Below are positions 28,901 through 31,900 of a stretch of 64,000 nt of DNA, in pieces (positions within the stretch are counted from its first letter, which is position 1; every line of letters begins with the position of its first letter). The translations under genes and the position numbers were made by a program. Source of the stretch: Octopus vulgaris. Taxonomy: Eukaryota. The DNA lies in contig OX597818.1 in assembly GCA_951406725.2 (NCBI GenBank), positions 91,078,001 to 91,142,000 on the forward strand, in the 5' to 3' direction. The notes beneath the pieces were generated by a model. That model did no database searches. It was not told where the DNA came from and saw only the letters and a list, made by a program, of their open reading frames with translations.

Positions 28901-31900
28901 GAGCTCTTACATACCCGAGCAACGCCGGGCTATGCTGCTAGTATATATATATATATATATATATGCATGTATATATTTATATATATATATATATATATAT
29001 ATATATATATATATATATATATATAGTAGAATAAAATATAAAATGACCTTGGTACTGTATATATTTGAGCAAATGAATAGAAATGGCATTTCTGTTAATT
29101 TTTTTCCAGTTTAATAATTAGATGTTTTTAAGACACCTCTAACTTACAAACATCTAATTTATTAAAGCGAAAAAAATTATCTGCCAAGCCATTTCTATAT
29201 ATTTTTTCAAATATATAACACTGTACCAAATATATTTACTGTACTTACTGCTTGTACTTCTGCACATATATATGTATGTATTTATTTAAGTATTATGTAT
29301 ATACGTATCTATGTGTATGTATGTGTGTGTAGGTATGTATATAGGTCATTCAGTATTGTTTTTAAAGATCGTTATTGACTCTCTGTTACCCAAAATATTT
29401 GCAATAATTTGCAACCATCTTGCATATCTATTGATTTGCGTAATTAAGGAACAAAATGCAAAAAAAATAGAACAGAGATATGCAACAAAATATTTAGGGA
29501 CCATGTTCATACCGGGTTGAAGGTATAGGATATAAATGGGTCAATATGGATTGAATAAAGAAAATATCTACACGTAGCCAGTTTGGAAGAATAGACGTCA
29601 TTTTACAATATTTTATGTATATATTCGGGTCTTTTGCCTAGAATAAAAAAAGGAATATTTTATGTAAATAAGTGTAGGCATGCCTGTGTGGCTAGGGAGT
29701 TAACTACCTAACCATGTGCTCTTGCGTTCTGTCCTACTGTGTGGTTTCTTTGGGTAGTGCCTTCTACTATAATTACAGACGAAGCAATTGGGAAACGGAA
29801 ACGGAAACTGAAAAGAAACCAATCGCATATATATATATATGTAGTTTGATCGTAGATGATCTATTTTTAGCATACGTCCGACTACTTAGTAGTCTTGCCC
29901 TTTGAATATACACATGTATTAGAATTTTCTCTGATTTTTCAGATTTTTGTATGCTAGGCTACTGGTCTTAAATTGATATTAATTAAATTAATATTAAATT
30001 TATCTCCCTCATTATTTAAATATTAAAATAAATATGTTCTCTAATAGGCGGCATTAACTGCAGTAAATTATTTACTGCAGACTTTCCCTTCCGGAATTTT
30101 AGCAGGCCAGAAGTAAGACATTTGAAATTATCCCTAATGTAATCAGTATAACTAAGCACGTGTCTGTTTTGGTACGGAAAGCTGGTGGTTAGTTTTACAA
30201 ATTACATTACCTGTGGAACGATCGCACTGACGAGTCTACTGACAATTGGATTATATAAGTAATTCGTTTGTTAATAGACGAAACCGCCGGTCTGTGAGTA
30301 ATTCTGGTATTTTATATAATTTTCATCTGCCTTGCCCGCCTAATTGCTCTGGTGTCCGCTGAATTTTCCTCTAGAGAACACTCTTTTCTTTGTAGTTTGA
30401 TCGTAGGTGATCTATTTCTAGCATGCGGCCGACTACCTAGTAGTCTTGCCATTTGAATATACACATGTGCATATATATATATATATATATATATATATAT
30501 CGGTGCGAATGGTTTTGTTAAGCGGTGTCAAGTTTCAAGTTTTACAATTCTGTAAATAATAAATTCATGTGCTGTTTGAAAATATGGGGGTACATTCAAC
30601 TAAAAGTTTCTCTAAATTTCCTGAATTGTGTGTGTGTGTGTGTGTGTGTGTGTGTGTGTGTGTGTGTGTGTGTGTGTGTGTGTGTGTGTGTGTGTGTGTG
30701 TGTGTGTGTGTGTGTGTGTGTGTGTGTGTGTGTGTGTGTGTGAGTCAGACAGAGGAAACAACGTATCTATCAGCCGAAATTCATATCCATTAAAGATCTT
30801 AAATACGACTATTTCGCTTCTATGATTCTGTCAATTTATTCATTCCATTTTCTTATGCACAAAAATTTCATTTCTACAATTGAACTAAGTGGATGAGTTC
30901 TTTCCGAACTGATCTAATTTGAGGGATTCCTACGCAGTAATGCCAATGTTACAGAAAATCGTGTTTGTAACTCAGTTTTGAAAGCACGAGAAAAATAAAA
31001 CTAGAACAAGGTTGATGCAAAAAGTGGAATGAGAAGACAGTCCTTTGTCCTCTCATTTCACTTTTTGCATCTCCCTTCTCATTTTTCTTCTTCTTCTTGA
31101 ACGTGGTTTCTCATGTGTGTGCGCCCTGTTTTTCAAATAGAAGAAACCTTATGCGCAGGACCCAAGGATTGCTTGGAGACACAAGACACACGATAAAAGA
31201 TTGCCTAACCACGGGCCTAGATGGCACGGAAATATTAGGAGCTCTTCTTCTAAAGCAATATACCTTGCATGATATTTATCATTCACTGGATGGAGCAGTT
31301 GTTCACCCTATCATAAAGGAACAGTAAACAACACACACACATGCACACACACACACACACACACACACACAGAAAAAGAGAGAGATAGAGAGAGATAAAG
31401 GATAAAATCCCTCTTCGGTCACGAATGACCGTGGGATTGCACCTACAATGTTACCCTCAGAGGCACAAATCCGGGAAAGGTTGTTTATGGAAGGCCAGCA
31501 GTCGTCCATGCATACCAACCTCACCACTTTTCTTTTTCATCCCCCAAGTAACCCTAGGTTCAATAAGATTCTCTGCGCTGAATTGCATATGCGCTGAATT
31601 ACCGCTGAATTACCGGCGCGGAATTGTTACGTGCTGAAGTGTCATGCCACGATACACACACACACACACACACGCACACATACACACACACGAAGACACA
31701 CACACACACACACACACATACACACACACACGCACGCACACACGCACACACACACACACGAAGACACACACTCACACACATGTATATGTATATGTGTGTG
31801 TGTGTGTGTCTGTGATGCTTATGTAGGTCCACCACTTCCTCTTGATAATCGGTGTTGGTTCGTTTACACCCACGCAAATTAGCAGTTCGACAAAAAGAAA

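Follow-up and report, generated by a model that had tools for sequence, protein, structure and literature searches.

What is a hammerhead ribozyme (HHR) motif doing in a long intron of a crystallin gene in Octopus vulgaris? Does it serve the gene that carries it, or does it belong to a repeat that was inserted there? We analysed a window of 64,000 nt (the whole stretch of DNA studied, contig OX597818.1; positions count from its first letter), which contains an S-crystallin/GST gene with the following coding exons:

22821..22959, plus strand: first coding exon, from the ATG
33651..33746, plus strand: second coding exon
36698-36813, about 40480-40589 and 42313-42477, plus strand: further coding exons

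Pfam GST models are matched by three of the five exons tested. The intron between the first two coding exons (22960-33650, 10,691 nt) is on the same strand as the HHR, and the cut site lies 7,333 nt past its donor and 3,359 nt ahead of its acceptor. We infer that this is intron 1, because there is a TATA-like box upstream and the ATGs of the paralogs are preceded by plain leader sequence. The preliminary description of this DNA had placed the HHR in the sense orientation of a 10.7-kb first intron, and our coordinates agree with it, the rank of the intron being probable. The first coding exon has 23 paralogs inside 1.4 Mb, which is the expectation for the octopus S-crystallin cluster as described in PMC9068888. 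The paralog at 22821-42477 is divergent, with exon 1 being 59-79% identical to cluster neighbours; its N-terminus is extended, and the first intron exceeds all 14 paralog introns located. Just 5' of the TATA-like box, at 22590-22625, there is a TGACTCA motif that we take to be AP-1-like.

The HHR motif consists of the following parts:

30222..30297, plus strand: type I HHR motif (sequence, pairing, covariation in 81 family copies)
after C30292, plus strand: predicted scissile bond, 3' of GUC (sequence)
30222-30226 with 30293-30297, plus strand: stem I, 5 pairs, one of them G-U
30227-30233, plus strand: HHR core CUGACGA (sequence)
30234-30279, plus strand: long stem II, 19 pairs in three segments with a 4-nt loop
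30280-30283, plus strand: HHR core GAAA (sequence)
30283-30291, plus strand: quasi-palindromic stem III ACCG-C-CGGU (pairing)
30215..30305, plus strand: possible outer extension of stem I (30215-30218 with 30302-30305), conserved

The site has the CUGANGA, GAAA and NUH elements and three helices with stem I open, as is characteristic of type I. A descriptor that requires the core and all three stems was scanned over both strands of the window and had a single match, at 30222-30297; the same descriptor gave no match in 300 locally shuffled windows. Because of this, and because of the compensatory changes in stem II that are described below, the HHR is not a chance motif. It had previously been described as a complete type I HHR with an intact core, a 5-bp stem I, a long stem II and a quasi-palindromic stem III, and all of these are seen in our sequence and pairing analysis. 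The word "canonical" was an overstatement. According to PMC4209133 the canonical HHR has a 6-bp helix I and a 4-bp helix II, and the octopus HHR with its 19-pair stem II departs from this definition as well as from the Rfam models. An Rfam scan of the window returned nothing at gathering score. Over 29700-30600 at E<=10 only Hammerhead_3 was seen (14.2 bits, E 9.7), and the Hammerhead_1 model, which had been proposed as a check, gave no match in this interval. Weak Rfam matches at E<=10 were otherwise microsatellite artefacts.

Stems I and II are predicted to fold locally. Stem III is different: as a monomer hairpin it has a predicted energy of +0.4 kcal/mol and is paired about 1% of the time, although it is able to make 3 pairs around a 3-nt loop, while its self-duplex is predicted at -10.2 kcal/mol (predictions range from about -10 to -12). 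A weak hairpin with a stable self-duplex fits the dimer mechanism that PMC4209133 describes for HHRs of metazoans whose helix III is short and palindromic.

The motif is part of a larger element, which the preliminary description, correct on the motif itself, had not delimited. Its features are as follows:

29840..30468, plus strand: retrozyme insertion of 629 nt, one 551-nt unit plus a 78-nt repeat
29840..29917, plus strand: 5' copy of the 78-nt direct repeat, 92% identical to the 3' copy
30391..30468, plus strand: 3' copy of the direct repeat, 551 nt from the 5' copy
29827..29840, no strand: (AT)n run at the 5' junction
30471..30500, no strand: (AT)15 at the 3' junction

The insertion is 5'-truncated and terminates at one of two fixed 3' ends used by its family. 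It sits between (AT)n runs, and a target-site duplication is unreadable in such a microsatellite. There is only one HHR in the 10,691-nt intron, and no second copy of the family was found anywhere in the 64-kb window.

Elsewhere in the genome the family is abundant. Matching the 29840-30468 stretch gave at least 68 matches from 39 scored of 2373 candidates, with the best dispersed copies being 85-92% identical to it. The 18-mer that spans stem III and the cut site is found without mismatch at least 89 times, its reversed control 0 times, and two patterns downstream of the cut site occur at least 168 and at least 164 times; all of these counts are lower bounds. Diverged HHR relatives were sought by DNA and pattern only. 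Most dispersed copies have their 3' end near unit position 80 or at ~182-196 and pass from there into (TA)n or (CA)n, and their 5' ends are variable due to truncation, frequently with an inverted 5' piece. The family is also present in contigs of sequencing runs labelled as three organisms. A sister retrozyme family (L134-L153, 3052 first-look candidates) is ~71% alike and has the same layout, an HHR with a shorter palindromic stem III and a 3' end motif in common. A third, more distant family (L122:5772-6365 on the minus strand and L264-L278) has the same layout with an HHR. Its period is ~450 nt and its stem III is a perfect palindrome of 8 nt; this family is older.

On contig C2 (L061/L062, about 212.108-212.119 Mb) there are 20 HHR units head to tail plus one inverted, with a period of about 550. 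This array ends in an inverted 5' piece and (TA)n, and the 17 units compared are 87-99.8% alike (median 90%). It is the best candidate for the source of family RNA. The crystallin promoter could in principle have the same role, supplying linear or circular element RNA for new insertions from the intronic copy, which does contain one complete unit and a 3' end used by the family. It had been suggested that the lens promoter drives production of such RNA. The lens and its expression are somatic, a single HHR is unable to excise a unit, identity to the crystallin-intron copy stays at or below 95% in all 84 other copies compared, and multi-unit templates are provided by the C2 array. Thus the lens promoter is unlikely to matter for the element, and we hardly believe that the crystallin-intron copy is a source of others.

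The family consists of tandem non-coding units of a few hundred nucleotides, each with a type I HHR, and so by structural definition it is a non-LTR retrozyme as judged from sequence. Two consecutive HHR units, as required of an active retrozyme, are found in the C2 array and not in the crystallin intron; in the terms of bioRxiv 10.64898/2026.07.22.740005 a copy with a single HHR is a monomer. Non-LTR retrozymes of animals, as described there and in PMC7229834, are likewise built of a non-coding tandem unit that holds a single type I HHR, occur as arrays and as dispersed monomers, and have low GC, Penelope-like elements (PLEs) in the same genome and common intronic copies. The octopus unit of 551 nt is longer than their RNAs of 170-400 nt and within the range of consensus lengths (51-972 bp). 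Unlike them, it has an interrupted stem II of 19 pairs, and PLE-type fixed 3' ends and inversions are obvious in the octopus family. We found no description of an octopus hammerhead retrozyme in the literature searched, and the supplements of the cited papers may list such motifs.

Is the ribozyme maintained? Our alignment has 81 rows, from a total of 105 HHR copies; it omits the majority of the array units, second copies at the same locus and some copies with indels. The pairs of the HHR structure are formed in 92.6% of cells, as compared to 34-41% when the structure is slid, and 81 cells are changed on both sides versus 39.8 in shuffled alignments. Two-sided changes affect five pairs of stem II, three of them in at least 20 copies, and this number of pairs (5) is not above shuffles. 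In stems I and III there is variation on one side only, and the outer extension of stem I shows no covariation among family copies. Many rows were chosen through the stem III pattern, which means that conservation of stem III is partly built in. Among 29 similarity-picked copies the core has 1 change in 319 positions versus 347 in 12,451 outside the HHR (p 0.003), and over its full length the HHR is at least as variable as the remainder of the element. Across the three families the length of stem III is 6-9 nt, several of its variants being perfectly palindromic. Its sequence shifts, yet the palindrome stays, and this points to cleavage as a dimer. The short palindromic stem III of the dimer type that had been noted at this locus holds for the families as well. 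Presumably the ribozyme is under selection in the element's own cycle.

The ends of the family tell about its movement. Fixed 3' ends with a tail, 5' truncation, inverted 5' copies and microsatellite targets are the anatomy of a non-autonomous PLE, and PLE anatomy in PMC8557442 matches the 3' ends, truncations and inversions of the octopus family. Two 3' end classes of PLE tails reflect two internal starts of reverse transcription, as reported in PMC11167929. Pseudo-LTR HHRs of PLEs (PMC4209133, PMC8557442, PMC11167929) resemble the octopus family in the short stem I, enlarged stem II and small palindromic stem III, and also in partial tandems, inverted 5'-truncated copies, (TA)n targets and two 3' end classes. 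Unlike in PLEs, where the two 3' ends are 30-40 nt apart, those of the octopus family are ~105 nt apart, and no RT or GIY-YIG reading frame is attached to any of the octopus copies examined. It is likely that the family is mobilised by a PLE. A link to Penelope or retrozyme HHRs had already been proposed for this locus, and the family ends, truncations, inversions and the tandem array speak for it. A Penelope-like reverse transcriptase/endonuclease would insert the element at TA-rich microsatellites, starting reverse transcription at either of two internal sites, and multi-unit transcripts would allow two HHRs to pair via stem III and cleave best in this form.

The helper is deduced, because no autonomous PLE with the family's repeat as its pseudo-LTR was found among the sampled PLE loci and families. 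The genome carries several PLE families with long open frames. No pseudo-LTR in common with the element was seen in 30 GIY-YIG loci, in 16 longer regions (14 of them PLE loci), in a PLE family with a 1312-aa frame or in an old PLE adjoining L029; the adjacency of retrozyme and PLE at L015 and L029 looks like nested insertion. Two of the PLE families are young. One of them (L118-L121), which we take to be Neptune-like by motif, has a Cys-rich linker before GIY-YIG, a 781-aa open frame with a further open frame upstream, and pseudo-LTRs that are 99-100% identical. The other (L174-L182) has open frames up to 1312 aa and frequent 5' inversions. The descriptors used found no HHR in either family. 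At L162:845-1142 a sequence related to the retrozyme 3' end directly abuts the pseudo-LTR of the 1312-aa family, which would be due to either a template switch or a nested insertion.

The 5' ends give some indication of the RNA template. Among 30 loci that were chosen by a match to the sequence directly 3' of the cut, none has its 5' end at the cleavage site. By eye, 14 of 29 dispersed loci break within 110 nt upstream of the cut, and five of these 14 breaks are 5-10 nt upstream of it, in stem III (p about 0.006 for clustering under a uniform model, in a window chosen after looking). Since no locus begins at the cut and breaks occur in stem III, these ends fit reverse transcription that reads through the cut site and tends to stop at the fold, on uncleaved or religated RNA. 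When the repeats of a single insertion are compared with each other, 223 of 4476 positions (~5%) are different over 29 loci, after two rows outside the element were dropped. This exceeds the ageing alone that is suggested by the nearly unchanged core, and we lean weakly toward heterogeneous multi-unit templates rather than one circle.

The family adds a cephalopod group of retrozymes, with three related families whose ends resemble products of Penelope-like enzymes, and it agrees with a recent proposal in which the retrozymes of animals derive from PLEs and are non-autonomous. Its copies are useful for studying how retrozymes move. The crystallin-intron locus itself is probably of little importance.

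Could the HHR nevertheless act on its host transcript? It had been proposed that cleavage of the crystallin pre-mRNA affects splicing or output. Amniote HH9 and HH10 are intronic hammerheads, and like the HDV-like ribozyme of CPEB3 they are single-copy and conserved across species. By contrast, the octopus HHR belongs to a repeat with many copies, and constraint particular to this locus was not apparent. In both the octopus gene and CPEB3 (PMC10274809), a motif of the self-cleaving type lies in a long intron in sense orientation, and CPEB3 sets a precedent in that its intronic ribozyme affects the host mRNA. An analogous, selected regulator in the octopus would have cleavage tuned to co-transcriptional splicing, possibly via neighbouring nascent transcripts that pair under heavy transcription of the gene; the intact core and the self-duplex of -10 to -12 kcal/mol are compatible with this. 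The copy is, however, an ordinary member of a young repeat family, its nearest copies being 93-95% identical. Of its 360 scored positions, 14 carry private changes; the HHR accounts for 2 of these (among 76 positions) and the surrounding element for 12 (among 284), a difference that indicates no extra constraint in a test of low power (p 0.74). For 20 of the 23 clustered paralogs the initial 9.5 kb were examined, and neither the retrozyme family nor its sister family was found there (in 14 of these 20 stretches the next exon was located inside the stretch), and only 1 of the 89 exact 18-mer matches is in the 1.4-Mb crystallin cluster. We therefore regard co-option as very improbable. The same low probability applies to the idea that the lone HHR senses transcription density: with stem III in need of a second copy as its partner, neighbouring nascent RNAs would dimerise and cut each other only when polymerases are dense on the gene; if this were true, it would cap the output of one S-crystallin paralog in lens-forming cells and tune the lens protein mix.

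An unselected side effect would be another way to influence the gene: the lone HHR would cut a measurable share of nascent transcripts and lower the output of this paralog without being adaptive. The HHR is in sense orientation with intact core and stems, stems I and II should fold locally, and the copy is among the 12 of 30 that passed a strict completeness test (29 of the 30 similarity-picked copies have an intact core). Single-unit activity is possible, because stem III can form 3 pairs and the single-unit HHR of a mussel retrozyme cleaves at about 0.1 per min (PMC7229834). According to work cited in PMC2995048, splicing is efficient across a hammerhead-cut intron and is aborted only by a faster ribozyme. 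Several points speak for low activity. Pairing of stem III in the monomer is ~1%; a G-to-T change at 30240, where 76 of 81 family copies have G, half closes the conserved unpaired 2x2 loop of stem II in the crystallin-intron copy, and this loss may weaken tertiary contacts; metazoan PLE-type HHRs alone are weak or inactive (PMC4209133; PMC11167929); and 1 of 9 Xenopus dimers was cleaved (bioRxiv 10.64898/2026.07.22.740005). We find such a side effect unlikely.

It is very likely, in our opinion, that the HHR is one dispersed copy of a non-LTR retrozyme, likely inserted by a PLE into (AT)n, and that it is a near-neutral passenger of the intron, the neutral reading resting on the low-power constraint test. 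A lone HHR in the crystallin pre-mRNA would have no partner in cis, and since there is one copy only, cleavage would be slow within the 3.4 kb left ahead of the next exon; a slow intronic cut would usually be compatible with splicing. A host role is unsupported, because there is a single HHR, an intact core is the norm of the family, extra constraint was not seen and 0 of 20 paralog regions contain the family. The intronic location needs no special account, as about 42-44% of Xenopus retrozyme copies are intronic (bioRxiv 10.64898/2026.07.22.740005).

The element also has a candidate internal intron:

30255..30394, plus strand: candidate 140-nt internal intron of the element (a lead), with donor-like and acceptor-like motifs

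A donor GT is present at 30255-30256 in 15 of 30 copies, with AT in the crystallin-intron copy, and a pyrimidine tract with AG lies at 30380-30394. In two families loop II has a donor-like motif that is followed, 120-140 nt further on, by an acceptor-like tract, and the donor-like letters in loop II double as a GNRA loop. The pair recalls the pseudo-LTR intron of PLEs, a possible lead; if it were spliced, half the ribozyme would be removed. Contigs of four sequencing runs, in which the unique flanks are largely uncovered, contain no joint of the candidate intron or of the empty site. One contig, guessed to be RNA, covers 30044-30362 unspliced with 23 differences and represents another family copy.

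The window contains some further repeats. At 23526-24004 a common interspersed repeat forms a 190-nt tandem. Outside the crystallin gene, at 51266-51293 on the minus strand, there is another, minimal hammerhead motif of the Penelope type, and similar sequence was seen in 10 of the 263 loci examined. An open frame at 48578-48916 (minus strand) is presumably a fragment of a LINE reverse transcriptase.
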